64,000 bases of DNA, taken from contig OZ244623.1 of the NCBI GenBank assembly GCA_965218465.1, forward strand, positions 2,735,152 to 2,799,151. Reading direction: 5' to 3'. The notes below the pieces were generated by a model that saw only the letters and a program-made list of their open reading frames with translations, was not told the DNA's origin and did not search any database. Positions 4,624 through 54,395 of this stretch are shown here, piece after piece. This DNA is from Acidobacteriota bacterium. Its GTDB lineage: Bacteria > Acidobacteriota > UBA6911 > RPQK01 > G965218465. How positions within the stretch are numbered: the first letter of the stretch is position 1; each line of letters starts with the position of its first letter. A program made the position numbers and the translations under genes.

Positions 4624-4645
4624 GAGTCAGATTCTCACTTGATGA

Positions 4646-15833: not shown

Positions 15834-15908
15834 TGGTGGAGGTAATCGGACTCGAACCGACGACCCCCTGCTTGCAAAGCAGGTGCTCTTCCACTGAGCT
15901 ATACCCCC
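15834..15908 (-). tRNA. tRNA-Ala (anticodon UGC) with encoded CCA.
   Basis: The reverse complement folds as a 75-nt cloverleaf: GGGGGTA/TA/GCTC-AGTGGAA-GAGC/A/CCTGC-TTTGCAA-GCAGG/GGGTC/GTCGG-TTCGAGT-CCGAT/TACCTCC/A/CCA. It has the G3:U70 alanine identity pair and a T-loop TTCGAGT. Confidence 0.9.
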
Positions 15909-38457: not shown

Positions 38458-38814
38458 ATGCTGGCTGCTTATTTGCCCGTGCTGATTTTCGCTCTGATAG
38501 CGGTTTCGTTGCCGGTGGTCGGTCTGGGAGTTGGTAGGCTGCTGCGGCCCTCTCGGCCTTCGGCCTCCAAACTCTCGCCTTATGAGTGCGGCGTAGAACC
38601 GGAAACCGATGCCAGAGACCGCATCTCGAACCGCTTTTACATCATCGCAATCCTGTTCGTGATATTCGACGTTGAGACGATTTTCTTGTTCCCTTGGGCT
38701 GTGATTTATGGCCGGCTTGCCATTTTCGGGTTTTTCGAGATGTTGATTTTTCTGGGAATTCTGATCGTGGGATATTTTTACGTTTGGAAGAAGGGGGCCC
38801 TGGAGTGGACTTGA
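38458..38814 (+). CDS. nuoA: NADH-quinone oxidoreductase subunit A.
   Basis: It has ..SPYECGVEP.. and three TM helices. The ATG at 38458 is preferred over the ORF-track start at 38425. Confidence 0.85.
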
Positions 38815-39311
38815 GTCAAGGTAACTTCGACAAGAACATTGTCACCACGACGCTTGATTCCGTTTTCAACTGGGCCCGCAAGTCCTCGCTTTGGCCCATG
38901 ACTTTTGGGTTGGCTTGTTGCGCCATCGAGATGATGGCTACGGGAGCCTCCCGCTTTGACATGGACCGCTTCGGCGCCGGAATTTTTCGGCCCTCGCCGC
39001 GGCAAGCAGACGTCATTATCATCGCCGGCACGGTTACCTTGAAAATGGCCGAGGTGATCCAACTGCTTTACGAACAGATGCCCGACCCCAAATGGGTAAT
39101 CTCGATGGGCGCTTGTTCGAGTGTTGGTGGCCCGTTTGACACCTATTCCACACTGCAGGGAGTCGACAAGGTTATTCCGGTTGATGTTTACATCCCCGGT
39201 TGTCCTCCCAGGCCGGAAGCGCTGCTCTACGGTTTGATGCGGCTGCAAGACAAGATCGACCAGATGAGTATCACCGATGCGCCGTATGCCGAGTTGGAGA
39301 TGAGCTCCTAA
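38805..39311 (+). CDS. nuoB: NADH-quinone oxidoreductase subunit B (N2 Fe-S cluster subunit).
   Basis: It has ..[11 protein letters not shown].. [11 protein letters not shown].. [10 protein letters not shown]... The GTG at 38805 overlaps the nuoA stop. The ORF-track start at 38694 lies inside nuoA. Confidence 0.85.
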
Positions 39312-40118
39312 ATGGCGGGGAAAAAGAAGTCTCGGGACGAAGGTCAAGGCGCCGGGTCCCCGGAAAGATCAAGAGCCGGCGGCGGCGGCCAGCAGCCTCC
39401 CGAGGGAAAGAAGTCGGCGGACCCAAAGGAGAGGCGGTCTTCCGCTCCTCAGCCCAACGCCGCAACTACCAAGGGGACCTCGGCCAAACGGGTAGCTCGT
39501 CCCGGCAAGATCCCCGTAAAGTCCAAGATCGCGAGAACTGGGAAATTCGGCGCTAAGCGTCGCCTGCGCCGTCCCATACGTCGCAAACCCAAAGGCCCGA
39601 CCTATGAGGACCTTCCCGACGAAGATGCCTTGAGTCAGGCCCTTCGCGAGTCTTTGCCCAACTCATTGGAGTCGGCTCAATCGTTTCTCAAGCAGCGGAT
39701 CTATGCCATCAAGCTGGATGCGCTCTACGACGCGTGTCTTTTTCTGCGTGACAGCCAAGAGTGGGACTTCGACTATCTGATCGATATAACCGCCGTGGAT
39801 TTTCTGGGAGAGCAACCCCGTTTTTGTCTGGTTTACCAGCTTTATTCCTACCGTCACCAACAGCTGGTTCGGCTCAAGTCGCGCCTCCCCATGGATGCAG
39901 TGGCCCCTTCGGTCACTGGTATTTGGGAGGCTGCCAATTGGTTGGAACGCGAGGTCTACGACATGTTCGGCATTGAGTTTTCAGGTCATCCCGATTTGAG
40001 ACGGATCCTGCTCCCCGATGACTGGTATGGATACCCTTTGCGCAAAGACTATGACATCAAGCTGCAGGATCAATCCTGGATCAGCAAACACTTGCGGATT
40101 CGAAAGGTTCCAAGCTAG
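39312..40118 (+). CDS. nuoC: NADH-quinone oxidoreductase subunit C (30 kDa) with an ~110-aa basic low-complexity N-terminal extension.
   Basis: The C-terminal about 150 aa is canonical NuoC (..[11 protein letters not shown].. [25 protein letters not shown]..). The first about 110 aa are K/R/G/P/S-rich ([49 protein letters not shown]). The ATG directly follows the nuoB stop. Confidence 0.85.
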
Positions 40119-40121
40119 CCG

Positions 40122-41234
40122 ATGATCGAAGAGACGGCTCTAGATACCCAAGAGCTGGAAATCAACATGGGTCCCCAGCACCCGTCCACTCATGGCGTGT
40201 TGAGGGTCAAGCTCTATCTGGATGGAGAACGCGTAAGCGACGCCGAATGCATTATCGGTTATCTGCATCGCGGGGTGGAGAAGATTGGTGAGAACCGGTC
40301 TTACATCAAGTGTGTCCCTTACTTCGACCGCACCGACTATATCGCCGCCGTTTCCAATGTGTACGGCTATGTCTTGGGTGTGGAGGCGATGGCGAGAATC
40401 AAGGTTCCCGAAAGGGCACGCTTGATTCGGATCATGATGACCGAGTTCAATCGGGTGGCCAGCCATCTTCTCTGGCTGGCCACCCACGCGCTCGATATCG
40501 GTGCTATGACCGTTTTTCTCTACTGCTTTCGAGAGCGCGAGGAGATTCTGAAACTCTTCGAAGCGCTTTTCGGCGCCCGCCTGACCACGCACGCCTTTAG
40601 GTTGGGAGGGTTATGGAAGGATCTGCCGGACGGGTTTGAGGCAGCAGCGCGGAAGTTCATCGGCAACTTTCCCGATCGAGTTGACGAATATGAACAGCTG
40701 TTGACCAAGAACCGCATTTGGATCGACCGAACCAAGGGCCTGGGCGTCATTTCGGCTGAAGAGGCGATCAATTTCGGATTGTCGGGTCCGCCCTTGCGGG
40801 GATCGGGCGTGGATTACGATCTCCGTAAGATCCGTCCCTATGGCGGCTATCAGGACTTCGATTTCGAAGTGCCGGTCGGGCAGGCCGGAGACACCTATGA
40901 TCGCTACCTGATCCGACTCGAGGAAATGCGCCAAAGCTGCCGCATCATCGATCAAGTTCTGGATCGATTACCAGAGGGGCCCATTCGGGGCAGAGTGGCC
41001 AAAATCGTCAAACCGCCCGTAGGTGAGTTTTACTCCGGTATCGAGGGGCCTCGTGGAGAACTCGGTTACTACTTGGTCAGCGACGGCTCCGCCCAGCCCT
41101 TTCGATTACGAATTCGACCCCCCACTTTCATTAGTTTGCAGGCTTTGCGACGTTTAGTGCGGGGTCATCTGGTAGCGGACGTGGTGGCGATCATTGGAAC
41201 TCTGGATATTGTGCTGGGAGAAATCGACCGCTAA
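40122..41234 (+). CDS. nuoD: NADH-quinone oxidoreductase subunit D (49 kDa).
   Basis: It has ..NMGPQHPSTHGVLR.. and a conserved C-terminal domain. Its stop overlaps the nuoH start. Confidence 0.9.
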   Translation: MIEETALDTQELEINMGPQHPSTHGVLRVKLYLDGERVSDAECIIGYLHRGVEKIGENRSYIKCVPYFDRTDYIAAVSNVYGYVLGVEAMARIKVPERARLIRIMMTEFNRVASHLLWLATHALDIGAMTVFLYCFREREEILKLFEALFGARLTTHAFRLGGLWKDLPDGFEAAARKFIGNFPDRVDEYEQLLTKNRIWIDRTKGLGVISAEEAINFGLSGPPLRGSGVDYDLRKIRPYGGYQDFDFEVPVGQAGDTYDRYLIRLEEMRQSCRIIDQVLDRLPEGPIRGRVAKIVKPPVGEFYSGIEGPRGELGYYLVSDGSAQPFRLRIRPPTFISLQALRRLVRGHLVADVVAIIGTLDIVLGEIDR

Positions 41235-42328
41235 TGGAAGCCCTGCTCACCTATGGTTTGATTCCGGCCATAAAGATCACCGTGGTGGTGCTGCTTCTTT
41301 CGGGAGCGGTGGCTTATCTCACGCTGCTGGAGCGAAAGCTGGTGGCACACATCCAAGTTCGTTTGGGACCGATGCGCGTCGGCTGGCACGGACTCCTCCA
41401 GCCCATCGCCGATGGACTCAAATTCTTGCTCAAAGAGGACATCATCCCCTCCCGAGCCGATAGGCTTCTTTTTACGATCGCTCCCGCCATCTCCCTCGTT
41501 CCCGCCTTCGTCGTGTTTTCGGTCGTGCCTTTCGGGCCGCCGGACATGTTCAAAGGTCTGCTGCAAACGGTTTTGGGTTGGTTCGTCGACCCGGCGACGG
41601 CCGAAGCGGTTGCCTCCAATAGCGTGGCTTCAGGAGGCTTTATTACCGATCTCAACATCGGGTTGCTGTTTCTGCTCTCGGTTTCCTCACTAGGGATCCT
41701 GGGGATCATCCTGGGCGGCTGGGCTTCCAACAGTAAATACCCAATGTTGGGGGCGCTTCGCTCAGCGGCGCAGATGGTCAGCTATGAAGTGGCGCTGGGC
41801 TTCTCGATTATTGGAGTCCTGCTGGTTGCCGGTTCGCTGAGCATGGTTGAGATAGTGCAGCAGCAACAGAGCATGGGTGTCTGGTATTTTGCCGTTCAGC
41901 CGGTCGCTTTCGTGCTCTTCTTCATCTGTGGCTTGGCCGAAACGAACAGAATCCCTTTCGATTTACCTGAAGCCGAGACTGAACTCGTGGGAGGTTTTCA
42001 TACTGAGTACAGTGGTTTTCGTTTCTCGCTCTTCTTTATCGCTGAGTATGCCAACATGGTGACGATCTCGGCGCTGGGCGTGACGCTTTTTTTCGGAGGC
42101 TGGCTTCGTCCCTTTCCCAATGTAGCTTGGCTGGGTTTTTTGGATCTGGTGCCCCCGGTGGCTTGGTTTGTCTTTAAGGTCTTCCTTTTCCTCTACGTTT
42201 TTATCTGGATCCGAGGCACGCTGCCTCGTTTTCGCTTTGACCAGCTGATGCGCTATGGGTGGAAGGTGTTTCTACCGGTGGCTCTGGCTAACGTTATTCT
42301 GTCGGCAGGGGTGATACTGTTGTTATGA
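41234..42328 (+). CDS. nuoH: NADH-quinone oxidoreductase subunit H.
   Basis: It has ..VVAYLTLLERKLVAHIQVRLGPMRVGWHGLLQPIADGLKFLLKED.. and is polytopic. Confidence 0.9.
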   Translation: MEALLTYGLIPAIKITVVVLLLSGAVAYLTLLERKLVAHIQVRLGPMRVGWHGLLQPIADGLKFLLKEDIIPSRADRLLFTIAPAISLVPAFVVFSVVPFGPPDMFKGLLQTVLGWFVDPATAEAVASNSVASGGFITDLNIGLLFLLSVSSLGILGIILGGWASNSKYPMLGALRSAAQMVSYEVALGFSIIGVLLVAGSLSMVEIVQQQQSMGVWYFAVQPVAFVLFFICGLAETNRIPFDLPEAETELVGGFHTEYSGFRFSLFFIAEYANMVTISALGVTLFFGGWLRPFPNVAWLGFLDLVPPVAWFVFKVFLFLYVFIWIRGTLPRFRFDQLMRYGWKVFLPVALANVILSAGVILLL

Positions 42329-42372
42329 ACCGCTCCAGCCAGGCCAATCTTGACCGCTAGATGGATTAAACC

Positions 42373-42831
42373 ATGGAACTACTGCGCAGAATCTTTTTTG
42401 TAGACATCCTGAAGGGACTACTTTTGACCTTCAAGTACACCTACAGCAAGGTGTATACGGAGCAATACCCTACCGAAAGACCCCGGTTGGCCGCTCGCTA
42501 CAAGGGGGCTCCTCGACTTAACAATGATCCCGAGACCGGGGAGACTCTGTGTATCGCCTGTGACCTTTGCGCCCAGATTTGTCCTGAGGACCTGATTGTG
42601 GTGGGTATCGACCGAGATCCTGAGAGTCGCAAGAAAGTGCTGACAACTTATACCTTCGACACCTCACGTTGTCTTTTCTGCGGCTTGTGCCAGGAAGTCT
42701 GTCCGACCAATGCCATTGAGTTGACTCAAGACTTTGAATTGGCAACCTATGATCGAAAGACGATGATGTGGGATCGAGAGAGACTCGAAAAGGGTTGGGA
42801 CCGGATCGAATTCGGCAAGAACTATCGCTAA
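42373..42831 (+). CDS. nuoI: NADH-quinone oxidoreductase subunit I (two 4Fe-4S clusters).
   Basis: It has two CxxCxxCxxxCP motifs (CIACDLCAQICP, CLFCGLCQEVCP). Confidence 0.9.
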   Translation: MELLRRIFFVDILKGLLLTFKYTYSKVYTEQYPTERPRLAARYKGAPRLNNDPETGETLCIACDLCAQICPEDLIVVGIDRDPESRKKVLTTYTFDTSRCLFCGLCQEVCPTNAIELTQDFELATYDRKTMMWDRERLEKGWDRIEFGKNYR

Positions 42832-42840
42832 GCGGAAGCA

Positions 42841-43347
42841 ATGGAAGCCATTCTTTTTTACACTCTGGCCGCCATTCTGGTGACCTTCTCTGTTTTCACG
42901 ATCACGGCCCGTAACCCGGTTCGTAGCGCCGTTTATTTGATTTCGGCGTTGCTGGCAATTGCCGGGCTCTTCTTGCTGCTGCAGGCTGAATTCGTGGCCG
43001 CGGTACAAATACTGGTTTACGTGGGGGGCATCATGGTGTTGGTGCTCTTCGTCATTTTGCTGGTGAGTGTCAGTCGCATACAGGCCGAGAGGCGGGCCAG
43101 TCGGCAGTGGAAGACTGCTGTGGTTCTGGCGGTGACCTTGGCGGTGGAGCTGGTTTTTCTGCTGGTACGGGGGGCGGGATGGTTCGAGCCGGCATCAGCG
43201 GCGCCATTGATCGAAGAGCGAACCGCCAACACCGAATCGGTCGCGGAATTGCTGTATACCTCCTATTTGCTGCCCTTTGAAATCGCCTCGGTATTGTTGC
43301 TGGTCGCTATGGTTGGAGCGGTGGTTTTGGCCAAGAAGCGACTTTAG
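42841..43347 (+). CDS. nuoJ: NADH-quinone oxidoreductase subunit J.
   Basis: The 168-aa membrane protein has NuoJ-like topology, and its operon position supports the call. Confidence 0.8.
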   Translation: MEAILFYTLAAILVTFSVFTITARNPVRSAVYLISALLAIAGLFLLLQAEFVAAVQILVYVGGIMVLVLFVILLVSVSRIQAERRASRQWKTAVVLAVTLAVELVFLLVRGAGWFEPASAAPLIEERTANTESVAELLYTSYLLPFEIASVLLLVAMVGAVVLAKKRL

Positions 43348-43376
43348 CTTCTGTGCCGGAGTAAGAGAAAACAAAG

Positions 43377-43682
43377 ATGCCAATAGATACAAGTCACTAC
43401 CTGGTCTTGAGCAGCATTGTTTTCTCCATCGGCGTGGTGGGAGTGCTGACGCGACGCAACGTCATTGTGATCTTTATGTCAATCGAACTGATGCTCAACG
43501 CCGTTAATCTCAACCTGGTCGCTTTTGCCGCCCGCCTGCAAGATCTCAACGGGCAGGTTTTCGCGATATTCGTGATTACGGTGGCAGCGGCTGAGGCGGC
43601 GGTCGGTTTAGGACTGGTCATTGCCCTCTTTAGAAACAAGGAAACTATCAACGTCGACGAAGTGGACCTGATGAAGTGGTAG
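43377..43682 (+). CDS. nuoK: NADH-quinone oxidoreductase subunit K.
   Basis: The 101-aa protein has three TM helices and the conserved Glu-containing helices (..[19 protein letters not shown]..). Confidence 0.85.
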
Positions 43683-43730
43683 GCTGAATCCTGCCCTCCA
43701 GGTCTCCTTGCGAAGCCTAACGGAAAACCG

Positions 43731-45794
43731 ATGCTTTCCTATTTGTGGCTGATACCCCTCTTGCCCTTACTCGGCTTTGTGATCAACGGGACTGTGGGGC
43801 TCTGGCTGTCCTACCGCGAGGATCGCCAACCGCCGCGGCGCTTTGTTTACGGAGTGGCCTGTACCGCGGTTGGACTCTCTTTCCTGCTCTCAGTAGGTTG
43901 TTTTCTGGCTCTTTTGGAACTGCCCGGGCAAGAACGGTTGGTGCGGCAAGAGCTCTTTGACTGGGTCCCGGGCAGTGTCTTCCTGAGCGCGGAGGGTGTC
44001 ACCCAACTCAATGTGGCCTGGAGTCTGCTGCTCGATCCCTTGTCGGCCGTCATGATCTTGTTCGTGTCCGGAGTCGGGTTTCTGATCCACGTTTATTCAG
44101 TGGGTTACATGTGGGAAGAGGAGGAGGGCTTTTACCGCTTTTTTGCCTACCTCAATCTTTTCATGTTCATGATGCTGACGCTGGTTTTGGGAGGCAATTA
44201 CCTGGTCCTGTTTGTGGGTTGGGAAGGGGTGGGACTTTGCTCCTATCTCCTGATCGGCTATTACATCGACAAGAGGAGTGCCGGTGATGCGGCCAAGAAG
44301 GCCTTTGTAGTCAATCGGATTGGCGACTTGGGCTTTATTCTGGGCATTTTTCTGATTCTATCTACCTTTGGCACCCTCGACTTCTCCCAGCTTTTCGGGA
44401 AGATTGCCGCCACTTATCCCCACGCTGAAACCGGCTGGGGAGTACTTAGCTGGATCGGTCTTCTTCTCTTTGTGGGTGCCGTCGGCAAGAGCGCCCAGGT
44501 GCCGCTCCATGTCTGGCTGCCCGACGCCATGGAAGGCCCCACTCCCGTGAGCGCCTTGATTCATGCGGCCACCATGGTAACGGCCGGTGTGTACATGGTA
44601 GCCCGGTCGACCGCGATTTATAGTCGAGCGCCCGAGGTGTCGCTGCTGGTGGCCGCGGTAGGAATCTTCACTGCCCTGCTGGCGGCGACAATCGGAATGT
44701 TCCAGCGTGACATCAAGAAAGTGTTGGCCTACTCCACCGTGAGTCAACTTGGCTACATGTTTACAGCTTTGGGTGTGGGTGCGGTCGTGGCTGGGATTTT
44801 CCACGTTTTCACCCATGCCTTCTTCAAAGCACTGCTCTTTCTTGGCGCGGGGAGTGTGATTCATGCCCTGCATCACGAACAGGACATGATGAAGATGGGC
44901 GGGCTCCGAAAATCGCTTCCCATCACCTGGGCAACGATGGGGATCGGAACCCTGGCTATCTCCGGATTTCCTCCCCTGGCCGGCTTTTTTTCCAAGGACG
45001 AAATTCTCTGGAAGATCTTCGCCGGCGGGCATCAAGTGATCTGGGGAATAGGCGCAGTGGTGGCCCTTCTGACTGCCTTCTACATGTTTCGGTTGATGTT
45101 CCTGACTTTTCACGGCAGCTCCCGCCTCTCGGAGAAGACGGCTCACCACGTTCACGAATCTCCGTCCAGTATGACCGTGCCCTTGGTCATTTTAGCCATC
45201 GGCTCCGTGGTGGTTGGTTTCCTGGGCATGCCCCCCTGGTCTGGATTTTCCAACGTCTTCGAGCAATTTCTGGAACCGTCGCTGGCTACTGCCTACCGCG
45301 GTGACGGCCATGAGGTGCATCACTCTCTGAGCCTGGAGGCGGGCTTGGCAGCCCTGTCCGTCGTGCTGGCGTTGCTGGGGGCGTTGCTGGCTTACCGCGT
45401 CTTTTTCAGAAACAAGGACTTGGGAGCGGCGTTGGCAAGGCGCCTGGGATCGCTCTACCGTCTGGTTTACAACAAATACTACGTTGATGAGACCTACGAT
45501 CTGCTGGTGGTCAACCGAACCAAGGGACTGGCCAACGGACTCTCTTGGTTCGATGACAAAATCGTGGATGGTTTCGTCAACGGTAGTGCGCTGATGACGA
45601 GGATCACTGCCTGGGTCTCCGGACAAGTCGACATCCACGTGGTGGATCGGCTGGTGAATCTGGCGGCCGAGACCGTGGAGTTCTTCAGCGCGGCCTTGCG
45701 CAAGCTGCAAACCGGGCTGGTTCAACGCTATATACTCTTCTTTCTGCTGGGAATTCTCCTGGTGGTCACCTATTACCTCTACACAGGAGCCTGA
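43731..45794 (+). CDS. nuoL: NADH-quinone oxidoreductase subunit L (antiporter-like, with long horizontal helix).
   Basis: The 687-aa protein has Mrp-antiporter-like core motifs (..WLPDAMEGPTPVSALIHAATMVTAGVY..). Confidence 0.9.
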   Translation: MLSYLWLIPLLPLLGFVINGTVGLWLSYREDRQPPRRFVYGVACTAVGLSFLLSVGCFLALLELPGQERLVRQELFDWVPGSVFLSAEGVTQLNVAWSLLLDPLSAVMILFVSGVGFLIHVYSVGYMWEEEEGFYRFFAYLNLFMFMMLTLVLGGNYLVLFVGWEGVGLCSYLLIGYYIDKRSAGDAAKKAFVVNRIGDLGFILGIFLILSTFGTLDFSQLFGKIAATYPHAETGWGVLSWIGLLLFVGAVGKSAQVPLHVWLPDAMEGPTPVSALIHAATMVTAGVYMVARSTAIYSRAPEVSLLVAAVGIFTALLAATIGMFQRDIKKVLAYSTVSQLGYMFTALGVGAVVAGIFHVFTHAFFKALLFLGAGSVIHALHHEQDMMKMGGLRKSLPITWATMGIGTLAISGFPPLAGFFSKDEILWKIFAGGHQVIWGIGAVVALLTAFYMFRLMFLTFHGSSRLSEKTAHHVHESPSSMTVPLVILAIGSVVVGFLGMPPWSGFSNVFEQFLEPSLATAYRGDGHEVHHSLSLEAGLAALSVVLALLGALLAYRVFFRNKDLGAALARRLGSLYRLVYNKYYVDETYDLLVVNRTKGLANGLSWFDDKIVDGFVNGSALMTRITAWVSGQVDIHVVDRLVNLAAETVEFFSAALRKLQTGLVQRYILFFLLGILLVVTYYLYTGA

Positions 45795-45797
45795 TCG

Positions 45798-47354
45798 ATG
45801 GAATTCTTCATGAGGAATATCCTCATCATTGTTTGTTTCTTTCCGTTGCTAGGGGTCTTCCTGCTGCTGTTGATCCCCAAAGGCGAAGGCCAGGACAGCA
45901 AGGTGAAATGGACGGCCAACATTGTGGCCTTCCTCGGTTTTCTGGTGTCGCTCCCGCTGCTCACTGAATTCAACGACCCCGGCTACATCGCCGATACCGG
46001 TATGCGTTTCGTGATCAAAGCGCCCTGGATTGAGGCAATCGGGGCCCAGTTCTACCTGGGCATCGACGGCATCAGCCTGCTGCTGATCCTATTGACTACT
46101 TTACTTGGCTTCATCTCGATTCTGGCTTCCTGGTCGGCGATCACCGAAAGAGTGCGTGAGTACTACTGCTACTTCCTTTTGTTGCAGGTGGGAATGCTGG
46201 GGGTTTTTATGGCCCTGGATTTCGTCCTCTTCTATGTGTTCTGGGAAGTGATGCTGGTACCGATGTACTTCATCATTGGGGTTTGGGGAGGAGCCAGGAA
46301 GCTATACGCCGCAATCAAGTTCTTTCTCTACACCCTGGCGGGTTCGGTACTACTGCTTCTCGGCATTCTGGCTCTCTATTTCTATCAGTACAGCCAGACC
46401 GGAATCTGGTCGTTCGATGTCCTCGCAATGCGAGAACTCGACATCCCAGGGGATTTGCAGTGGTGGATCTTCATGGCCTTCTTTGTGGGATTCGCCATCA
46501 AGGTCCCGATGATTCCGTTTCACACCTGGTTGCCCGACGCCCACGTCGAGGCGCCTACTGCCGGTTCGGTCATTCTGGCAGGGGTTCTGCTCAAGATGGG
46601 GACTTATGGTTTTGTCCGGTTTAGTCTGCCGATTCTACCCCAGGCCAGCATGGACTGCCTGCCCTGGCTGCTGCTGCTTTCGGCCATCGGCATCATCTAT
46701 GGAGCCCTGGTGGCGATGATGCAAAAGGATATGAAGAAGTTGGTGGCTTATTCTTCGGTCAGCCACCTGGGTTTCTGCATGTTGGGGGTTTTCGTGGTCA
46801 CCCCGATCGCGTTGCAAGGTGGCCTTCTTCAAATGATCAACCATGGCATCTCCACGGGTGCGCTCTTTTTGATCGTAGGTGTGCTTTACGAACGTCGGCA
46901 TACCCGCCTGATTGCCGACTACGGCGGCATCTCCAAAGTGATGCCGCTCTATGCCACCGTCTTTCTCATCATGACCATGTCTTCGATCGGCTTGCCGACG
47001 CTCAACGGGTTCATAGGCGAATTTCTGATCCTTCAAGGAGTGTTCGCCGACCCGCCCAACCGCATTTGGGCGGTGGTCGCGGTTCTGGGTATCGTTCTGG
47101 GAGCTGCCTATATGCTGTGGCTTTATCAACGGGTCATGTTGGGCAAGAACGACAACCCAGCCAACCACAATCTTACCGATCTGAACTTGCGAGAGTTGGC
47201 CACGTTCGTACCGTTGATTCTATTGGCGTTTTGGATTGGCCTTTACCCACGCCCCTTTCTCAGCTATCTGAATGAGCCGGTCAATGAGATCGTTGAGATC
47301 GTTCGGCCTGGAGAATTCCCTCAGCTCCCGATGCAAACCGGATCCAAGGAGTGA
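45798..47354 (+). CDS. nuoM: NADH-quinone oxidoreductase subunit M.
   Basis: The 518-aa antiporter-like subunit has ..HTWLPDAHVEAPTAGSVILAGVLLKMG... Confidence 0.9.
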   Translation: MEFFMRNILIIVCFFPLLGVFLLLLIPKGEGQDSKVKWTANIVAFLGFLVSLPLLTEFNDPGYIADTGMRFVIKAPWIEAIGAQFYLGIDGISLLLILLTTLLGFISILASWSAITERVREYYCYFLLLQVGMLGVFMALDFVLFYVFWEVMLVPMYFIIGVWGGARKLYAAIKFFLYTLAGSVLLLLGILALYFYQYSQTGIWSFDVLAMRELDIPGDLQWWIFMAFFVGFAIKVPMIPFHTWLPDAHVEAPTAGSVILAGVLLKMGTYGFVRFSLPILPQASMDCLPWLLLLSAIGIIYGALVAMMQKDMKKLVAYSSVSHLGFCMLGVFVVTPIALQGGLLQMINHGISTGALFLIVGVLYERRHTRLIADYGGISKVMPLYATVFLIMTMSSIGLPTLNGFIGEFLILQGVFADPPNRIWAVVAVLGIVLGAAYMLWLYQRVMLGKNDNPANHNLTDLNLRELATFVPLILLAFWIGLYPRPFLSYLNEPVNEIVEIVRPGEFPQLPMQTGSKE

Positions 47355-48854
47355 TTGATGTCCGATCTTGTCCCCAGCGACTTGCTTGAGTTTTTGCGGA
47401 CCAATTCGGTCGCTATTGCTCCTCAGTTGCACTTGATAGCCTGGGGATTAGGAATCCTTTGCGTAGACTCGTTCGTTCCCGCGACTCAAAAGCGTCCCTG
47501 GGGAGTCGGATTTGCTCTGGCAGGGATCGTGCTGGCCAGTCTACATCTGTTCTATGGCTGGGGTAGAGGAGGGCCGGGATTCGACGATCGGATCACTTTG
47601 GATTCCTTTGCCCAGTTCTTTGACATCATCTTTCTGGTAGCAGCGCTGCTGGCAGTTCTCCTCTCTTATCGCTATCTCGATATCGAGCGTGCTCAACACC
47701 TTGAGTACTACGCGCTGATCCTTTTTGCAGTTTCGGGAATGATGTTCATGGCAGGAGCTCTTGACTTGGTGACGCTCTTCATCGGGTTGGAGCTGATGTC
47801 GATTTCGACTTATGTCCTGGTGGGCTTTCTCCGGTCACAGCGGCGCTCCAATGAAGCCGCATTGAAATATTTCTTAGTGGGAGCTTTCTCGACTGGAGTC
47901 TTGCTTTACGGTATGTCGCTGCTCTACGGAATAACGGGATCGACCAGGTTGGAGACCATTGGCCGGGCCGTTGGAGAGATGAGTGACAACGGGTTGCTGG
48001 TGGTATCAGTGCTGATGCTGGCATCCGGCTTTTCTTTCAAGATAGCCGCAGCACCCTTTCACATGTGGGCTCCAGACGCCTACGAGGGCGCCCCTACAGC
48101 GATCACCGCTTTCATGTCGGTGGCCGTCAAGGCGGCCGCTTTCGCCGTGTTTTTGAGGGTTTTTCTGGTGGCTTTCGCCGATTTACGGGAGCTTTATTTG
48201 GTGGTTCTGGCCGTGATCGCAATGGCCACCATGACGTGGGGCAACTTGGCGGCAGTGACCCAGAGCAACGTCAAACGGCTGCTGGCTTATTCCAGCATTT
48301 CTCATGCCGGCTACATCATGATGGGATTGCTGGCGGGGAGCGAATTCGGCGTAACGGCTTCGGCCGTCTACCTGTTCGCTTACACCTTCATGAACCTGGG
48401 CATTTGGGCAGTTGTCATTTTGCTGCGTCGTCACGACATCAGTGGCGAGCAACTGGAAGACTTCGATGGACTCTTTCACAAGGCGCCGAGTATCGCTGTG
48501 CTCATGTTGATTTTTCTCTTGTCATTGGCGGGGATACCTCCGCTGGGTGGTTTCATCGCCAAATATTTCGTCTTCGCTGCGGTCATCCAGTCGGCTCTGA
48601 ACGGTGATACTTTCTCGTTATTGCTGACAACAGTGGCCGTGGTGGGAGCCCTCAACGTTGTCATTTCACTCTATTATTACCTGCGGATAGTCGTACGGAT
48701 GTTCTTCAAGACCGATTATGTTCCCGCTCGGCTGAGTTATTCTTTCGGACTGGTATTCACCTTGGTGGTGACCGTGCTTTTGACGATTTGGGTGGGCGTC
48801 TATCCGCAGCCGTTTATCGAATTGGCTCGAAGCGCCAGCCTCCCGTTGATTTAA
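47355..48854 (+). CDS. nuoN: NADH-quinone oxidoreductase subunit N.
   Basis: The 499-aa antiporter-like subunit has ..APFHMWAPDAYEGAPTAITAFMS... Confidence 0.9.
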   Translation: MMSDLVPSDLLEFLRTNSVAIAPQLHLIAWGLGILCVDSFVPATQKRPWGVGFALAGIVLASLHLFYGWGRGGPGFDDRITLDSFAQFFDIIFLVAALLAVLLSYRYLDIERAQHLEYYALILFAVSGMMFMAGALDLVTLFIGLELMSISTYVLVGFLRSQRRSNEAALKYFLVGAFSTGVLLYGMSLLYGITGSTRLETIGRAVGEMSDNGLLVVSVLMLASGFSFKIAAAPFHMWAPDAYEGAPTAITAFMSVAVKAAAFAVFLRVFLVAFADLRELYLVVLAVIAMATMTWGNLAAVTQSNVKRLLAYSSISHAGYIMMGLLAGSEFGVTASAVYLFAYTFMNLGIWAVVILLRRHDISGEQLEDFDGLFHKAPSIAVLMLIFLLSLAGIPPLGGFIAKYFVFAAVIQSALNGDTFSLLLTTVAVVGALNVVISLYYYLRIVVRMFFKTDYVPARLSYSFGLVFTLVVTVLLTIWVGVYPQPFIELARSASLPLI

Positions 48855-49008: not shown

Positions 49009-49215
49009 GTGAAAATGCCCAAACGCAATCCCTGGGGGGAGGCGGCGCGCTATAGTGCCATCATCCTGATCTTACCAGTCTGCCTGCTGCTAGGGTTGCT
49101 GGTAGGGCGCTGGTTAGACGACCGGTGGAGTACCGGTCCGACCTTTTCGATTGTCGGTTTTTTGTTGGGAATTGCCGTGGCAGCCGTTGAAGTGCATCGC
49201 CTGTTGAAGCCATGA
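49009..49215 (+). CDS. AtpZ/AtpI-family small membrane protein (putative ATP synthase accessory protein).
   Basis: The 68-aa protein has two TM helices with the characteristic GRWLDDRW..TGPTFSIVGFLLG motif. It lies at the head of the atp genes. Confidence 0.7.
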   Translation: MKMPKRNPWGEAARYSAIILILPVCLLLGLLVGRWLDDRWSTGPTFSIVGFLLGIAVAAVEVHRLLKP

Positions 49216-49577
49216 AGCGAATTGTCCGCAATGCCTATCTGTTGTGGGCTGGGTTGACGTCGGCTGGGCTGCTGGGGTGGGGTTGGGAAGTAGCATTGTC
49301 GGTCGCGATTGGGGGCGGTATGGCGACCCTCAATTTTCACTGGTTGGCCAAGGGAGTGGACGGCGTTCTGGGCACCCTTGGCTCGACTCGCCAAGCTAGA
49401 CTGGCCATTCTGAAATACGTGGGTCGCCTACTGTTGATATTGGTGGGGGTGTTTGCTATGATCCGTCTTTCTTTTTTTAGCCTTTGGGGGCTGCTGACGG
49501 GTTTGGCAATCTTCGTAGTCGCGGGGATGTTGGAGGCAGTCCTACTACTTTTTGAGGAACTTTCCCGCAATCGATAG
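49212..49577 (+). CDS. atpI: ATP synthase protein I (AtpI).
   Basis: The 121-aa hydrophobic protein sits between atpZ and atpB, and its start overlaps the atpZ stop. Confidence 0.65.
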   Translation: MKRIVRNAYLLWAGLTSAGLLGWGWEVALSVAIGGGMATLNFHWLAKGVDGVLGTLGSTRQARLAILKYVGRLLLILVGVFAMIRLSFFSLWGLLTGLAIFVVAGMLEAVLLLFEELSRNR

Positions 49578-49580
49578 TTA

Positions 49581-50315
49581 ATGGAACATCACGAGTTCTT
49601 TGTCTCAACCATTTTCAACCGCTACCTCGTCAACCCGGTTGCCGAACTGCTTGGTGTCCACACTGACCATGATCTGCTGCCCGCCCATGTCGTGATGATC
49701 ATTCTGGTGAGCCTGGGGCTGGCGTTGTTTTCGCTTTTCTTGCGCCGCCGGCTGAGTGCCGACCGTCCTGGGATAGCCCAGCAAGTGGTGGAGCTGGCCG
49801 TGGCGGGAATTACTGATTTCATGGGGGATATTATTGGCCCGGGAGCGCGGCGTTTTTTCCCGCTGATCGGCACGCTTTTCTTCTACATCCTGGCCTGTAA
49901 CCTGCTGGGGCTGATTCCCGGTTTCATGTCACCGACCAGCAACATCAACATCACGGCGGGTTGCGGTATCATCGTTTTCATCTACTACAACTACCAGGGC
50001 TTCAAGGCTCAGGGCTTCTGGAAATACCTGGCCCATTTTGCCGGGCCATCGCTGGTCATAGCTCCGCTGTTATTCGTGATCGAGATCATCAGCCATTTGG
50101 CGAGGCCGTTCTCGCTGTCGGTCCGGCTTTTTGGCAATATCTTTGCGGAAGAACTGATCATCACCAGTCTCAACCAGATTTTCCCATTCCTGGTGACGAT
50201 ACCGGTGATGGCACTGGCGATTTTTGCCAGCACGATTCAGGCTTTTATTTTTATCGTATTGACGATGGTTTACATTGGGGGGGCGGTCGAGCACTCCCAC
50301 AATGGTGATCGCTAG
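49581..50315 (+). CDS. atpB: F0F1 ATP synthase subunit a.
   Basis: It has the conserved Arg-containing helix (..LSVRLFGNIFAEELI..) and subunit-a topology. Confidence 0.9.
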   Translation: MEHHEFFVSTIFNRYLVNPVAELLGVHTDHDLLPAHVVMIILVSLGLALFSLFLRRRLSADRPGIAQQVVELAVAGITDFMGDIIGPGARRFFPLIGTLFFYILACNLLGLIPGFMSPTSNINITAGCGIIVFIYYNYQGFKAQGFWKYLAHFAGPSLVIAPLLFVIEIISHLARPFSLSVRLFGNIFAEELIITSLNQIFPFLVTIPVMALAIFASTIQAFIFIVLTMVYIGGAVEHSHNGDR

Positions 50316-50345
50316 ACACAGTCCGGGGCTGCTGAACTCACGTGG

Positions 50346-50363
50346 AATTTTTTGACTTGAGCC
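50346..50363 (+). promoter_or_regulatory. Copy 2 of the recurrent 18-nt motif AATTTTYTGACTTGAGCC (38 nt upstream of atpE).
   Basis: aattttTtgacttgagcc; the core GACTTGAG(Y)CC also occurs at 24911..24922 upstream of clpB. Confidence 0.35.
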
Positions 50364-50400
50364 TTTGCCAAGAGATGCAGAGTTCTGAAACGAAGGGAGT

Positions 50401-50709
50401 TTGTTCCAGATGAGGAAGTTTTTTTTCTATACGGTTTCGATCCTATTCTTACTCAGCCTTTTTGTGGCTCCCGTCTATGCGCAGAGCGAGGGTGCGGGAG
50501 TAGTTGAGGCCCTGAGCACCAAGGCGATCGCCTTGGCCATCGCAGCCGCCGGCTGTGGCTACGCTCAGTCTCAAGCGCTCAGTGGGGGATGTCAGGGCGT
50601 CTCCAGAAACCCCGGGGCAGCCGGTACCATTCGATTCTTTATTATTCTGGGTTTGGCCTTTATTGAATTCTTGGCTTTATTGGTTTTTATCTACGTCGGT
50701 TTCTTCTAA
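50401..50709 (+). CDS. atpE: F0F1 ATP synthase subunit c with an N-terminal signal-peptide-like extension.
   Basis: The C-terminal hairpin has ..GVSRNPGAAG.. and the ion-binding Glu in LAFIEFLALLVF (no S/T after the Glu, so an H+-type site). About 30 extra N-terminal residues (MFQMRKFFFYTVSILFLLSLFVAPVYAQSEG) are present. Confidence 0.85.
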   Translation: MFQMRKFFFYTVSILFLLSLFVAPVYAQSEGAGVVEALSTKAIALAIAAAGCGYAQSQALSGGCQGVSRNPGAAGTIRFFIILGLAFIEFLALLVFIYVGFF

Positions 50710-51150: not shown

Positions 51151-51588
51151 ATGCCCCGGACGAAATTCCTGATTGCCGGTGGTTTGATCGTCGCCGCCAT
51201 TACCTTGCTGATGTGGAGTGGTGTCAACAGCTCCATGGTTTATTACTACTCCGTCTCGGAACTTCACTCCCAGAGCGACCGACTTTACGACAAAGGAATT
51301 CGGGTCAGCGGCCAAGTAGCGGTGAACAGCATCCGCCTGGAAAGTAGCCGGTCGGAGGTCGAGTTTCGGATCCTGGAACGAGCCACCGGTCAAACCCTTC
51401 CTGTGGAATACATGGGGATCATTCCTGATACCTTCAAGGACCGTGCAGAGGTTGTCGTCGAGGGCAAGTACGACTCCACGGACGGAATTTTTCACGCTAC
51501 CACGCTGCTTGCCAAGTGTCCCTCCAAGTACGAGGCCTTATACGAAGAGTCGGCAGCCGAGGGCAAGCCTGCTGCGGAAACTCTCTGA
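51151..51588 (+). CDS. ccmE: Cytochrome c maturation heme chaperone CcmE, Cys-type (CxxxY) variant.
   Basis: It has an N-terminal anchor and an OB-fold (..RVSGQVAVNSI.. VEYMGIIPDTFKDRAEVVVEGKY..). The motif LLAKCPSKYEA aligns to E. coli LAKHDENY, with the heme-binding His replaced by Cys. Confidence 0.85.
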   Translation: MPRTKFLIAGGLIVAAITLLMWSGVNSSMVYYYSVSELHSQSDRLYDKGIRVSGQVAVNSIRLESSRSEVEFRILERATGQTLPVEYMGIIPDTFKDRAEVVVEGKYDSTDGIFHATTLLAKCPSKYEALYEESAAEGKPAAETL

Positions 51589-51618
51589 CCGCGAGTTCCG
51601 TGGCAGAGAATTCGACAA

Positions 51619-53607
51619 ATGATTGAACTGGGCCGATATTGCCTGTTGGGTGCTCTGCTGCTCTGCGGTTACGGCTTGGTTGCCTCCAGCTGGGGCGCCA
51701 GACGCCGCAGCTTGGTCTGGATTCGCAGCGGAGAGAATGCGGCCCTGGCAAATTTTGGCTTCCTGCTGGCGGCCTCGATTTGTCTTTGGATCTTGCTTCT
51801 GACCGATCAGTTTCAGGTCGAGTATGTCTTTGGCTACAGCGCCCTCAATCAGCCCGTGGGTTACAAGTTCACCGCCTTCTGGGGTGGCCAAAGCGGTAGC
51901 CTCTTGTTTTGGGCGTTACTGCTTTCGCTTTTCGCGGCCATAGCGGTATTGCAGAATCGGCGTCGCAACCGCGACCTGATGCCGGCCACGACTGCCGTGC
52001 TGATGGGAACCAGCTTCTTCTTCACTTTACTGCTTAATTTAGCCACCAATCCATTTGACGTGTTGCCTAATGTTCCCCCCGACGGGCAGGGGCTCAACCC
52101 CCTGTTGCAGAACTGGTATATGACCATTCACCCGCCCATGCTCTATCTTGGCTACATTGGGCTGACCGTCCCTTTTGCTTTCGCGATGGGGGCTCTGATC
52201 AGCGGACGGTTGGACACGAGTTGGATCGCCGTGACCCGTCGCTGGGCTCTAGTCAGCTGGTGCTTCCTGACTTTCGGCATCACGCTGGGAGGCATGTGGG
52301 CTTACGAAGAACTTGGTTGGGGTGGCTATTGGGCCTGGGACCCGGTAGAGAACGCGTCTTTCATGCCTTGGCTGGTGGCTACGGCCTTTATCCACTCGCT
52401 GATGATCACCGAGAAAAAGGGCATGCTCAAAATGTGGAACTTCGCCCTGATTCTGCTGGCATTTGAGCTCGCCATTTTTGGCACGTTCATTACCCGCAGT
52501 GGCGTAATATCATCGGTGCACTCTTTTGCCCTTTCCAACCTGGGACCCTTTTTCGTTGTCTTTATCGTCCTCAGCTCGGCGATTGGTCTCTTTTGGATCT
52601 TCTATCGATCGGCCCACTTGAGGAGCCAGCTCAAGATGCAGTCGTTTCTCTCGCGAGAGGCCACCTTCCTGCTTAACAATTGGCTCTTTGTATCGATCTG
52701 TTTCGCGGTTTTCTGGGGGACTGTATTCCCCATCCTCTCAGAATGGGTCACCGGCGATAAGATTACGGTATCAGCACCTTTTTTCAACCGCGTTACGACG
52801 CCTCTTTGGCTGGGCTTGCTGGTCTTAACGGGAATCTGCCCGTTGATTGCCTGGCGCAAGGCTTCTTTCAAGAATTTTCGCCGTAATTTTGTCTATCCGC
52901 TATTGGGAGGGCTGACCAGCGGGCTATTGGTTGTGACGTTGGGAGTCCGTGGCTGGTGGCCTCTCTTGTTTTTTTCCGCCGCCGGTTTTGTAGCGCTTAC
53001 CGTCTTTTTCGAGTTCTACAAGGGCGCCCGTGCCCGCCAGGCGATTCGGCCGACAGGTTTTCTTCCTGCCCTGATCGATCTGGTCACCATGAATAAGCGT
53101 CGCTACGGCGGCTTTACCATCCACTTCGGTGTCATTCTGGTTTTTGTTGGGATCACGGCCAGTTCGTTTTTTGGGGTCGAGCGCTTCTTCACCGTAAAGG
53201 AGGGAGAGAGCTTCACTCTTGCGGGGTACACCATGAAATTCAGCGGTCTTAGGGAACGACGCGATCCCGAGAAGACTGTGATTCTGGCTCCACTGGAGGT
53301 TTACCGGGCCGGTGAGTTTTTGACACAGCTCACCCCTGAGAAGCATTTCCACAACAAGAGTGATCAGCCGCAGACGGAAGTCGAGATTCGGTCAACGGTG
53401 AAAGAAGACCTTTACATCGTGCTATCCGGCTGGGACGAAAACGGCGCCACCTTTCACGTTTATGTCAATCCTCTGGTTATGGTAATCTGGCTGGGCGTAG
53501 CTGTTATGGTAGCGGGAGGACTCTTCGTGTTGCTCCCTAATCGAAAACGAGTTACTCCCATTGCTGTCCGAGCCTCTCCGGCAAAGGTGCGGGATGAAGC
53601 GGCTTAG
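51619..53607 (+). CDS. ccmF: Cytochrome c-type biogenesis protein CcmF (heme lyase component).
   Basis: The 662-aa protein has the WWD domain (..WGGYWAWDPVENASFMPWL..) and conserved His residues. Confidence 0.9.
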   Translation: MIELGRYCLLGALLLCGYGLVASSWGARRRSLVWIRSGENAALANFGFLLAASICLWILLLTDQFQVEYVFGYSALNQPVGYKFTAFWGGQSGSLLFWALLLSLFAAIAVLQNRRRNRDLMPATTAVLMGTSFFFTLLLNLATNPFDVLPNVPPDGQGLNPLLQNWYMTIHPPMLYLGYIGLTVPFAFAMGALISGRLDTSWIAVTRRWALVSWCFLTFGITLGGMWAYEELGWGGYWAWDPVENASFMPWLVATAFIHSLMITEKKGMLKMWNFALILLAFELAIFGTFITRSGVISSVHSFALSNLGPFFVVFIVLSSAIGLFWIFYRSAHLRSQLKMQSFLSREATFLLNNWLFVSICFAVFWGTVFPILSEWVTGDKITVSAPFFNRVTTPLWLGLLVLTGICPLIAWRKASFKNFRRNFVYPLLGGLTSGLLVVTLGVRGWWPLLFFSAAGFVALTVFFEFYKGARARQAIRPTGFLPALIDLVTMNKRRYGGFTIHFGVILVFVGITASSFFGVERFFTVKEGESFTLAGYTMKFSGLRERRDPEKTVILAPLEVYRAGEFLTQLTPEKHFHNKSDQPQTEVEIRSTVKEDLYIVLSGWDENGATFHVYVNPLVMVIWLGVAVMVAGGLFVLLPNRKRVTPIAVRASPAKVRDEAA

Positions 53608-54061
53608 CCTTTCGATTTTGTTCGTCAGTCTGTTGGCCCCCTCGGTTTCAGCGGCGGTGGAGGTCGACCGGGAAGATCTGATCAGGATCACCGGCAACAT
53701 CGTCTGTACTTGTGGTTCCTCGGGGTGTCCACCGACCCACCTGGTCCGCCATTGCTCCTGTGCCAATGCCCAAAAGATGTCGCAGGAGGTGGCAAGTCTA
53801 CTGGCCGAGGGCAAGAACGACGAGGAGATTTACGGTTACTACATTGAGAGGTTTGGAGCCACGGTCATGGCCTCTCCCAATGCCGAAGGTTTCAACTTGT
53901 TGGGTTGGAGCTTGCCTTTTGTGGCGCTCGTATTGGGCGGAGGAGTCGTAGTGGGGGTGTACCGACGGCTCAGAACGACCCAAGCGGCTTCCCCACCGGC
54001 GGTGAGGTCCGATTTGGACCCCAAATACCGGGAAATGTTGGATCGAGAGTTGGCGGAATAG
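53594..54061 (+). CDS. ccmH: CcmH/NrfF-like cytochrome c biogenesis protein.
   Basis: It has a signal peptide (MKRLSLSILFVSLLAPSVSAAV), a Cys-rich segment (VCTCGSSGCPP) and a C-terminal TM. Its position after ccmF supports the call. The start is trimmed from 53561. Confidence 0.6.
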   Translation: MKRLSLSILFVSLLAPSVSAAVEVDREDLIRITGNIVCTCGSSGCPPTHLVRHCSCANAQKMSQEVASLLAEGKNDEEIYGYYIERFGATVMASPNAEGFNLLGWSLPFVALVLGGGVVVGVYRRLRTTQAASPPAVRSDLDPKYREMLDRELAE

Positions 54062-54087
54062 TCAGCCGGCTTTGCCCAAAGCGATTC

Positions 54088-54393: not shown

Positions 54394-54395
54394 AG

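Follow-up and report, generated by a model that had tools for sequence, protein, structure and literature searches.

An eleven-gene complex I operon without nuoE, nuoF, and nuoG in an Acidobacteriota genome, with a ferredoxin-type donor as the best-supported reading

Introduction

What supplies electrons to a complex I that lacks NuoE, NuoF, and NuoG, the subunits of the N-module? The question is raised by the operon nuoABCDHIJKLMN, which lies within a 64-kb stretch of DNA (here, the window) from an uncultured Acidobacteriota bacterium (contig OZ244623.1, positions 2,735,152 to 2,799,151). A first-pass annotation of the window had named the electron input of this enzyme as the question to answer. 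This was correct, yet the same question had already been recognized in general for eleven-subunit enzymes of this type, known as NUO11 (PMC3144371, PMC11238625, PMC4758237). NUO11 has been described since 2011, and its definition by Degli Esposti includes the absence of nuoE, nuoF, and nuoG from the whole genome (PMC4758237). Moparthi and Hagerhall argued that it is ancestral, found no common partner for it, and proposed that its Q-module offers several donors a platform to dock on (PMC3144371). Since the class and its donor question were already known, the finding is less novel than the first-pass annotation implied.

Overall, the data are best explained by an N-module-less NUO11 that is fed at NuoI by a low-potential one-electron carrier, most probably ferredoxin, a reading that we hold slightly more firmly than not. 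The evidence comes from the operon itself, from the conservation of its architecture across Acidobacteriota, from a segment missing from NuoD, and from ferredoxin domains fused to NuoC in a sister lineage.

The operon is complete and has no space for further genes

Eleven co-directional, tightly packed open reading frames (ORFs) between positions 38458 and 48854 (+) were assigned as nuoABCDHIJKLMN from the ORF listing and from Pfam and NCBIfam models (Table 1). When genes were called independently on this DNA, the boundaries of all eleven came out identical. nuoA and nuoB overlap by 10 nucleotides (nt), nuoB and nuoC abut, and nuoD and nuoH overlap by 1 nt, while the other intergenic gaps measure 3 nt (C/D), 44 nt (H/I), 9 nt (I/J), 29 nt (J/K), 48 nt (K/L), 3 nt (L/M), and 3 nt (M/N). 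As no gap exceeds 48 nt, an extra gene has no space in the operon. The nuoD-nuoH junction reads CGC-TAATG-GAA, the TAA stop codon (41232 to 41234) sharing one base with the nuoH ATG (41234 to 41236). A gap or assembly error at this point had been considered in the first-pass annotation. The exact NuoD protein was found on three contigs, with the same gene order and an identical junction in each: a 3,193,430-bp contig (ERZ25067264 ctg836578_50x_c, 50x), another contig of that assembly, at 12x, and a contig of an independent Logan assembly of ERR13605531. The junction is therefore not an assembly artifact.

For the missing genes, NuoE, NuoF, and NuoG from four 14-gene operons were used as tblastn seeds against the six reading frames of the window. 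No homologue was found in the 64 kb, the sole matches being to the iron-sulfur (Fe-S) motifs of NuoI, and no N-module domain, flavodoxin, or ferredoxin was detected when the larger ORFs of the whole window were scanned with Pfam. Thus, three claims of the first-pass annotation were borne out: that the eleven-gene operon lacks nuoE, nuoF, and nuoG (by Pfam, NCBIfam, and tblastn over 64 kb), that the nuoD stop overlaps the nuoH start (by direct reading), and that no donor-module gene lies nearby (none in 38 kb upstream or 15 kb downstream).

Cofactor and quinone-site residues are intact, and the enzyme classes with bacterial NUO11

The ligands of cluster N2 are present in NuoB, as the tandem cysteines of GLACCAIEM together with GACS and PGCPP. 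NuoI carries two CxxCxxCxxxCP motifs, at 42550 and 42670, and the window contains no others of this form. Residues equivalent to Thermus His38, Tyr87, Thr135, and Asp139, which serve as markers of quinone reactivity (Degli Esposti, PMC4758237), are present in NuoD; its motifs read GPQHPSTHG, FDRTDY, LATHALDIG, and, at the C terminus, DIVLGEIDR. Neither terminal motif of NuoD contains NiFe-binding cysteines. From these intact catalytic and cofactor residues, the product is predicted to be a functional complex I-like enzyme of bacterial NUO11 type that reduces quinone and pumps protons.

The NCBIfam cut-offs were passed for NuoB, NuoC_fam, NuoD (TIGR01962), NuoH, NuoI, NuoK, NuoL, and NuoM. All of the Ndh models scored below theirs (NdhH, 395.8 versus 583; NdhI, 87 versus 302; NdhJ, 89 versus 175; NdhF type, 574 versus 963), as did the Fpo "exception" models (FpoD, 377 versus 600; FpoH, 290 versus 475; FpoL, 450 versus 1050). 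The best Protein Data Bank (PDB) sequence matches of NuoD were mitochondrial 49-kDa subunits, at an E value of about 1e-115, with Mbh and FHL far weaker. By sequence, then, the enzyme classes as neither cyanobacterial NDH-1, nor Fpo, nor a hydrogenase. The likeness to EFG-less complexes drawn in the first-pass annotation stood for the eleven-subunit class, as bacterial NUO11, and fell for the NDH-1/Fpo lineage, with NdhH and all Fpo models below cut-off. Its warning about the label also proved apt: with several NCBIfam cut-offs passed, annotation pipelines would assign an NADH-quinone oxidoreductase. The claim that the enzyme cannot oxidize NADH in this organism is drawn from the general literature.

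Two membrane subunits carry insertions. In NuoH, 22 residues are inserted in the loop after "PFG" (41530 to 41600, about residues 100 to 125), a feature seen only in the window and two of the related loci described below. In NuoL, an insertion of about 25 residues duplicates an "FDxxIVDGxVNG" element (45300 to 45500, about residues 560 to 610) and is common only to the window's clade and to an Aquificota-type EFG-less clade.

The nuoEFG-less state is conserved across an acidobacterial clade

The nuo genes were extracted from 80 related loci, and a neighbor-joining tree of NuoD was built, with bootstrapping (100 replicates) performed with indel columns excluded. The nearest Genome Taxonomy Database (GTDB) genomes were Acidobacteriota metagenome-assembled genomes (MAGs) with 80 to 83% NuoD identity. 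The window NuoD fell into an acidobacterial clade with members from Terriglobia, Polarisedimenticolia, and Holophagae, supported in 98/100 bootstraps. Within this clade, nuoH directly followed nuoD in 16/16 assessable operons, and no gap exceeded 43 nt. A distant clade, with about 50% identity, was formed by the 14-gene operons of Acidobacteriota, found for example in nine of the related loci. The tree, which the first-pass annotation had proposed as a check, thus places the window NuoD in an EFG-less group apart from the 14-gene operons.

This placement bears on the possibility that the operon is split, with NuoE, NuoF, and NuoG encoded elsewhere in the genome and the enzyme acting as an ordinary NADH:quinone oxidoreductase. 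Several nuo operons per genome have been noted in Acidobacteria, and 6/7 peatland MAGs of one study have one operon that includes nuoEFG (10.1101/197269); moreover, a deltaproteobacterium is predicted to use its one nuoEFG set for two operons (PMC4453560). Nevertheless, every operon in the 98%-supported clade is EFG-less, and the clade is only about half identical in NuoD to the acidobacterial 14-gene type. Two further features described below, the NuoD segment that the clade lacks and the ferredoxin domains tethered to sister-lineage enzymes, which would have no purpose with an N-module docked in that place, also speak against a split operon, and we consider it quite improbable.

Recent loss of nuoEFG does occur. 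EFG-less operons from seven Desulfuromonadales MAGs nested inside a 14-gene Desulfuromonadales clade and kept a long NuoD and a 90- to 125-nt spacer between nuoD and nuoH. From this nesting and the retained spacer, the loss in Desulfuromonadales appears to be recent and independent, in contrast to the ancient state in the window's clade. Such cases lend some plausibility to the idea that the window operon is likewise a decaying or nonfunctional remnant of a 14-gene operon. However, none of its eleven ORFs is disrupted, the cofactor ligands are conserved, the nuoD-nuoH junction is a translationally coupled overlap with no scar, and the EFG-less state is kept across Acidobacteriota classes at 56 to 83% NuoD identity. 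The idea is effectively refuted. The adjacency of nuoD and nuoH in every assessable clade member, together with the clade-wide indels in NuoD and NuoL, instead supports the earlier proposal that the three genes are absent by design.

A grouping of the acidobacterial clade with the Aquificota clade that also has a short NuoD, as sister groups, was not supported (0/100 bootstraps), so the indels that they share may be ancestral or convergent.

NuoD of the clade lacks a segment at the presumed docking apex

In an alignment of 81 NuoD sequences, one stretch measured 51 to 54 residues in the acidobacterial and the Aquificota/Thermodesulfobacteriota EFG-less clades versus 76 to 81 in all others. The absent segment, of about 25 residues, has the consensus ...PPK..V...ME.LIHHFK..TEGF... 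and was present in every EFG-containing operon examined. Hidden Markov model (HMM) and PDB alignments of the window NuoD were collinear to about residue 295, after which 24 residues were lost. End-to-end matches of the window NuoD and NuoL were obtained only with the short-NuoD model PRK12322, FpoD, and FpoL, while the canonical and Ndh models matched them in two pieces. The 366-residue PRK12322 model is, we assume, the Bacillus-type NuoD.

By coordinates rather than by residue-by-residue alignment, the missing segment would correspond approximately to NdhH 297 to 321, the stretch with Lys315 and Lys321. These two lysines touch ferredoxin in the structure of ferredoxin-bound NDH-1L (Fd-NDH-1L) (PMC7021789). 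The loss of the segment points to an electron-input surface unlike that of the 14-subunit enzymes.

A separate observation also concerns NuoD. In two Terriglobia MAGs, the EFG-less operon has a gap between nuoB and nuoC, which in one of them (L007, Table 1) holds a Methyltransf_28 gene; the gap in the other (L008) is equivalent. Methyltransf_28 is the family of the mitochondrial complex I assembly factor NDUFAF7/MidA, which acts by methylating an arginine in the 49-kDa subunit. The window NuoD retains the corresponding Arg (FDRTDY), and no methyltransferase of this type was found in the window by tblastn.

NuoC carries a long N-terminal tail

The Complex1_30kDa core of NuoC begins at residue 133, and the preceding stretch is rich in Gly, Ser, Pro, Ala, Lys, and Arg. 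Its first 127 residues have a net charge of +18 and an isoelectric point of 11.0. The nuoC ATG abuts the nuoB stop codon, and the extension is kept in frame, without a frameshift, in an 82%-identical homologue (P0122), indicating that it is translated. The stretch before the core was mostly about 25 to 55 residues long in 14-gene operons versus 45 to 270 in the acidobacterial clade. Homologues differed greatly in how long their tails are and in what residues make them up; some have long Arg/Pro/Lys repeats, and all end in a basic patch and a conserved junction, KKGP[ST]YEDLxDDxLL. An N-terminal extension of NuoC was noted by Moparthi and Hagerhall only in Bacillaceae NUO11, where contact with a partner was guessed (PMC3144371). 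The length of the NuoC C terminus, considered as a marker of N-module contact, did not differ consistently between EFG-less and EFG-containing operons.

Ferredoxin domains are fused to NuoC in Holophagae

In Holophagae, the NuoC tail opens with a domain of about 80 residues, MAI.KVWIEEGCIVCNACEAEC...GCPV, followed by an Ala/Pro-rich linker. Among the best 120 homologues, 94 had the domain, with one copy in 69/120 and two in tandem in 25/120, and it was lacking in 26/120. Cys12, Cys15, Cys18, Cys33, and Cys74 were invariant (CxxCxxC...CP), and many of the matches carry precomputed Pfam assignments to Fer4_13 or Fer4_15. A single-sequence AlphaFold model of the Geothrix domain reached a pLDDT (predicted local distance difference test) of 43, and an alignment-based model of the domain, with a pLDDT of 91.7, was used instead. 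Its top 11 PDB fold matches were all single-cluster [4Fe-4S] or [3Fe-4S] ferredoxins, with probabilities of 0.96 to 1.0. In the cultured Geothrix sp. 21YS21S-2 (CP132910.1), the gene with the fusion is part of a nuoA-B-C-D-H-I-J-K-L-M-N cluster with atpZ-atpI-atpB behind it, which is the layout of the window; a second example comes from a Holophaga sp. MAG (Table 1). The fused proteins are annotated merely as "NADH-quinone oxidoreductase subunit C," and no description of a ferredoxin-NuoC fusion was found in the searched literature. The fusion constitutes "Rosetta-stone" evidence for a ferredoxin-type module acting at a site within reach of the NuoC N terminus.

Proposed route of electron entry

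The gene complement, the layout of the operon, the intact cofactor and quinone-site residues, the lack of nuoEFG throughout the clade, the NuoD deletion, and the NuoC extension are observations; we infer which donor is used, what the tail does, which quinone is reduced, and in which direction the enzyme runs. In the proposed scheme, a quinone module comprising NuoB, NuoC, NuoD, and NuoI would sit on a proton-pumping membrane arm of NuoA, NuoH, NuoJ, NuoK, NuoL, NuoM, and NuoN. A low-potential one-electron carrier, most probably ferredoxin, would dock at the NuoI/NuoD apex and reduce the distal [4Fe-4S] cluster of NuoI. Electrons would then pass from N6a to N6b in NuoI, to N2 in NuoB, and on to a quinone, probably menaquinone, in a pocket formed by NuoD, NuoB, and NuoH, and quinone reduction would drive proton translocation through NuoL, NuoM, and NuoN. 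The disordered polybasic tail of NuoC may help to recruit acidic free ferredoxin electrostatically.

Precedents for donors other than NADH include the ferredoxin-driven NDH-1 (PMC7021789) and the NUO11 of Desulfitobacterium hafniense, which is required for growth on pyruvate or lactate and not on H2 (PMC11238625). Spero et al. (PMC4453560) list documented alternatives: archaea use F420H2 or ferredoxin, and Campylobacter uses flavodoxin.

An extension of the scheme, which we put forward tentatively and would not be surprised to see fail, is that the NuoC N terminus marks the electron-input site, as a "swinging arm" with tethered ferredoxin in Holophagae (Geothrix and Holophaga) and as a ferredoxin-capturing tail in the window's lineage. 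The tethered domains would shuttle electrons from cytoplasmic oxidoreductases to NuoI, and the window tail would play the role of NdhV and NdhO. Lipoyl domains, with their Ala/Pro-rich linkers, offer an analogy for such an arm.

Several observations weigh against a ferredoxin-type donor in the window's enzyme. No ferredoxin or flavodoxin gene linked to the operon was found in the window or in the locus of any relative. The window NuoC has no Fe-S domain, its tail being cysteine-free, so the fusion counts as evidence from a sister lineage only. The basicity of the tail is not conserved either: tails of the closest GTDB relatives have net charges of -7 to +1 and share only a Pro/Lys-rich patch and the "GPxYEDL" junction. 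The loop between the NuoI clusters has a median charge of -1 or +1 in EFG-less clades versus -2 in EFG-containing operons, a weak trend in which it is only slightly less negative. Finally, the absence of nuoE, nuoF, and nuoG was established within the 64-kb window, on a contig that spans 3.19 Mb.

The lack of a linked donor gene would fit an enzyme that has no dedicated donor. Such an enzyme could be a docking platform for flavodoxin, dehydrogenase subunits, or the diaphorase modules of hydrogenases, as in the general proposal for NUO11 that followed the unsuccessful search for a common partner (PMC3144371), or it could run mainly in reverse, reducing a low-potential carrier from menaquinol at the expense of the proton motive force. 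No donor gene was found among the conserved neighbors of 16 related loci, where only atpB/atpE, an epimerase, and the housekeeping genes PGK and DUF192 were conserved, none of them a redox partner. More than one partner could be served by a NuoC tail that is long and flexible. The conserved linkage to atpZIBE fits a core bioenergetic role and says nothing on direction; nor is the direction of operation indicated by any feature of the sequence. The Holophagae fusion, on the other hand, is specifically to a single-cluster ferredoxin, which argues for a ferredoxin-type rather than a generic interface. A platform or a mainly reverse-running enzyme is accordingly judged rather unlikely, and a ferredoxin-type donor remains the best-supported reading.

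Comparison with known systems

The window operon agrees with bacterial NUO11 in the gene order nuoABCDHIJKLMN without nuoEFG, in the quinone-site residues and N2 tandem cysteines, in a short NuoD that matches PRK12322 end to end, and in a low-complexity N-terminal extension of NuoC, as in Bacillaceae. It differs in its acidobacterial host, its own NuoD clade, and the atpZIBE genes directly downstream. The NuoC tail is polybasic, with the clade-specific "GPxYEDL" junction and a sequence unrelated to other tails, and ferredoxin domains occur on NuoC in its sister lineage. In the Holophagae fusions the tail brings its own cluster, whereas in the window 4Fe-4S motifs are confined to NuoI.

With cyanobacterial and plastid NDH-1, the enzyme shares eleven core subunits, the lack of an N-module, and entry at NdhI/NuoI. 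In Fd-NDH-1L, NdhI, NdhH (Lys315 and Lys321), NdhV, and NdhO together form a strongly positive apex on which acidic ferredoxin is seated; NdhJ, the NuoC homologue, is among the subunits that hold NdhO, whose N-terminal lysines contact ferredoxin (PMC7021789). In contrast, the window proteins fall below the cut-offs of the NdhH, NdhI, NdhJ, and NdhF models, and NuoD is without the segment mapped to the ferredoxin-contacting lysines. No NdhL to NdhV genes were recognized in or beside the operon, which has no unassigned ORF and is flanked by unrelated genes, although no dedicated small-subunit HMMs were run. The genes also form a single operon rather than scattered groups.

Fpo and the Fpo-like complex without FpoF likewise have eleven homologous core subunits, and their short FpoD and long FpoL match NuoD and NuoL end to end. 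Ferredoxin as donor to archaeal enzymes without FpoF is documented in work cited in PMC4453560. The window proteins nevertheless score far below the Fpo cut-offs, the operon has no FpoF, FpoO, or additional gene, and the host is bacterial, with menaquinone rather than methanophenazine as the presumed acceptor.

The 14-subunit complex I of Thermus thermophilus, Escherichia coli, and mitochondria has homologous Q- and P-modules and the same ligands for N2, N6a/b, and the quinone site. The window differs from it in lacking NuoE, NuoF, NuoG, and the 25-residue NuoD segment and in having a long NuoC tail and an extra NuoL element. Complex I of Campylobacterota, in which flavodoxin is the donor, NuoG is retained, and NuoE and NuoF are replaced, resembles the proposed enzyme in using a small acidic carrier that is not NADH. 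There, however, a NuoG-like gene of about 2.4 kb lies between nuoD and nuoH (gaps of 2.3 to 2.4 kb in five loci), and the window has none; the overlap at its nuoD-nuoH junction leaves no space for a NuoG-like gene of this type and two small replacement genes. From the membrane-bound [NiFe] hydrogenases (Ech, Mbh, Hyf, and FHL), the enzyme is set apart by a NuoD without NiFe cysteine pairs.

Genomic neighborhood

Genes for the membrane sector of ATP synthase follow nuoN directly, with no donor module, and are in turn followed by cytochrome c maturation genes (Table 1). The linkage of nuo11 and atp genes was also found in five other related loci and in Geothrix, spanning the window's family, Holophagae, and Polarisedimenticolia, which suggests a core housekeeping rather than an accessory enzyme. 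The genes for the b, delta, alpha, gamma, beta, and epsilon subunits are not in the window.

A promoter and terminator scan found no convincing promoter or terminator between the nuo and atp genes. Promoter-like sites in the scan were at random expectation (7 found versus 7.3 expected). Terminator-like sites exceeded it (30 found versus 18.5 ± 4.1), most of them inside genes and none after nuoN.

Elsewhere in the window, a RACo-like protein with a Fer2 2Fe-2S domain, a RACo middle domain, and an ASKHA C-terminal domain is encoded near a radical-SAM protein, with a tRNA-Ala(TGC) gene between them. The RACo-like protein, which is encoded 24 kb from the nuo operon and shows no sign of linkage to it, was the one Fe-S protein noticed in the window outside that operon. 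A planctomycete-style gene pair in this Acidobacteriota genome comprises a 1,134-residue PSCyt1/PSCyt2/PSD1 protein and a DUF1501 protein. Taken by itself the pair would suggest a host in Planctomycetota, a reading rejected because the nearest GTDB genomes by NuoD are Acidobacteriota. Toward the other end, a 1,972-residue ORF combines arylsulfotransferase, Big_12, SWM-repeat, cadherin, and fibronectin-III domains, and over 58 to 64 kb the G+C content rises from about 0.55 to 0.63 to 0.65, with negative GC skew.

Table 1. Features of the window and of related loci (positions in the window unless a locus is named; aa, amino acids; RBS, ribosome-binding site)
Feature	Positions	Strand	Description
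nuoA	38458-38814	+	118 aa membrane subunit; Pfam Oxidored_q4, E=9.6e-39; ATG after RBS aaggagagagg
nuoB	38805-39311	+	168 aa, carries cluster N2; starts with GTG; NCBIfam NuoB subfamily, 252 bits vs cut-off 116
nuoC	39312-40118	+	268 aa; Complex1_30kDa only at aa 133-250; TIGR01961, 141 bits vs cut-off 122
nuoC N-terminal extension	39312-39611	+	about 100 residues, low complexity, cysteine-free, polybasic; conserved junction motif at its end
nuoD	40122-41234	+	370 aa, short-type quinone-site subunit; TIGR01962, 492.6 bits vs cut-off 459
Position of missing segment in nuoD	41007-41012	+	between residues 296 and 297; about 25 residues of canonical NuoD absent
TAATG, nuoD stop/nuoH start overlap	41232-41236	+	direct sequence reading
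nuoH	41234-42328	+	364 aa; Pfam NADHdh, E=3.8e-123
nuoI	42373-42831	+	152 aa, two [4Fe-4S]; presumed electron entry; TIGR01971, 129.8 bits vs cut-off 113
nuoJ	42841-43347	+	168 aa; Pfam Oxidored_q3, E=1.9e-41
nuoK	43377-43682	+	101 aa; Pfam Oxidored_q2, E=4.9e-32; NF004322, 130.6 bits vs cut-off 128
nuoL	43731-45794	+	687 aa, antiporter-like, C-terminal extension; TIGR01974, 752 bits; Pfam Proton_antipo_N, _M, _C
nuoM	45798-47354	+	518 aa; TIGR01972, 616 bits vs cut-off 264
nuoN	47358-48854	+	498 aa; Pfam Proton_antipo_M, E=5.7e-74
atpZ, atpI, atpB (subunit a), atpE (subunit c)	49015-50709	+	Pfam ATPase_gene1, ATP-synt_I, ATP-synt_A, ATP-synt_C
ccmE, ccmF, ccmA, ccmB, ccmC	51151-56537		cytochrome c maturation
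PSCyt1/PSCyt2/PSD1 and DUF1501 gene pair	3151-8050	-	planctomycete style
RACo-like gene	12826-14445	+	Fer2, RACo middle, and ASKHA domains
tRNA-Ala(TGC)	15834-15908	-
Radical-SAM gene	15992-17065	+
Arylsulfotransferase-domain ORF	57975-63893	-	1,972 aa
Methyltransf_28 gene, L007	7940-8983		between nuoB and nuoC, Terriglobia MAG
Fused nuoC, L028	8696-9988		Holophaga sp. MAG, DATGXY010000046.1
Fused nuoC, L084	10001-11290		Geothrix sp. 21YS21S-2

Implications

As a class, the operon is ordinary: complex I without an N-module is widespread and documented. What is specific to this lineage is the short NuoD, the NuoC tail, and the NuoL insertion. When the metabolism of uncultured bacteria is reconstructed, such operons are routinely mislabeled as NADH dehydrogenase, an error that matters for models of energy metabolism in Acidobacteriota.

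The locus gives context to the fifteen-year-old question of the electron source for eleven-subunit complex I. Its lineage within Acidobacteriota is old; in it, the docking apex of NuoD is remodeled and an N-terminal appendage of NuoC is always present, which in the cultured sister genus Geothrix is a tethered ferredoxin. The ferredoxin-NuoC fusion is the most interesting by-product of the analysis, as it makes the donor hypothesis experimentally approachable in a cultivable organism. If the NuoC N terminus does serve as the input site, the tails of NuoC, including those of Bacillaceae NUO11, would be the long-sought device by which N-module-less complex I recruits its donor.

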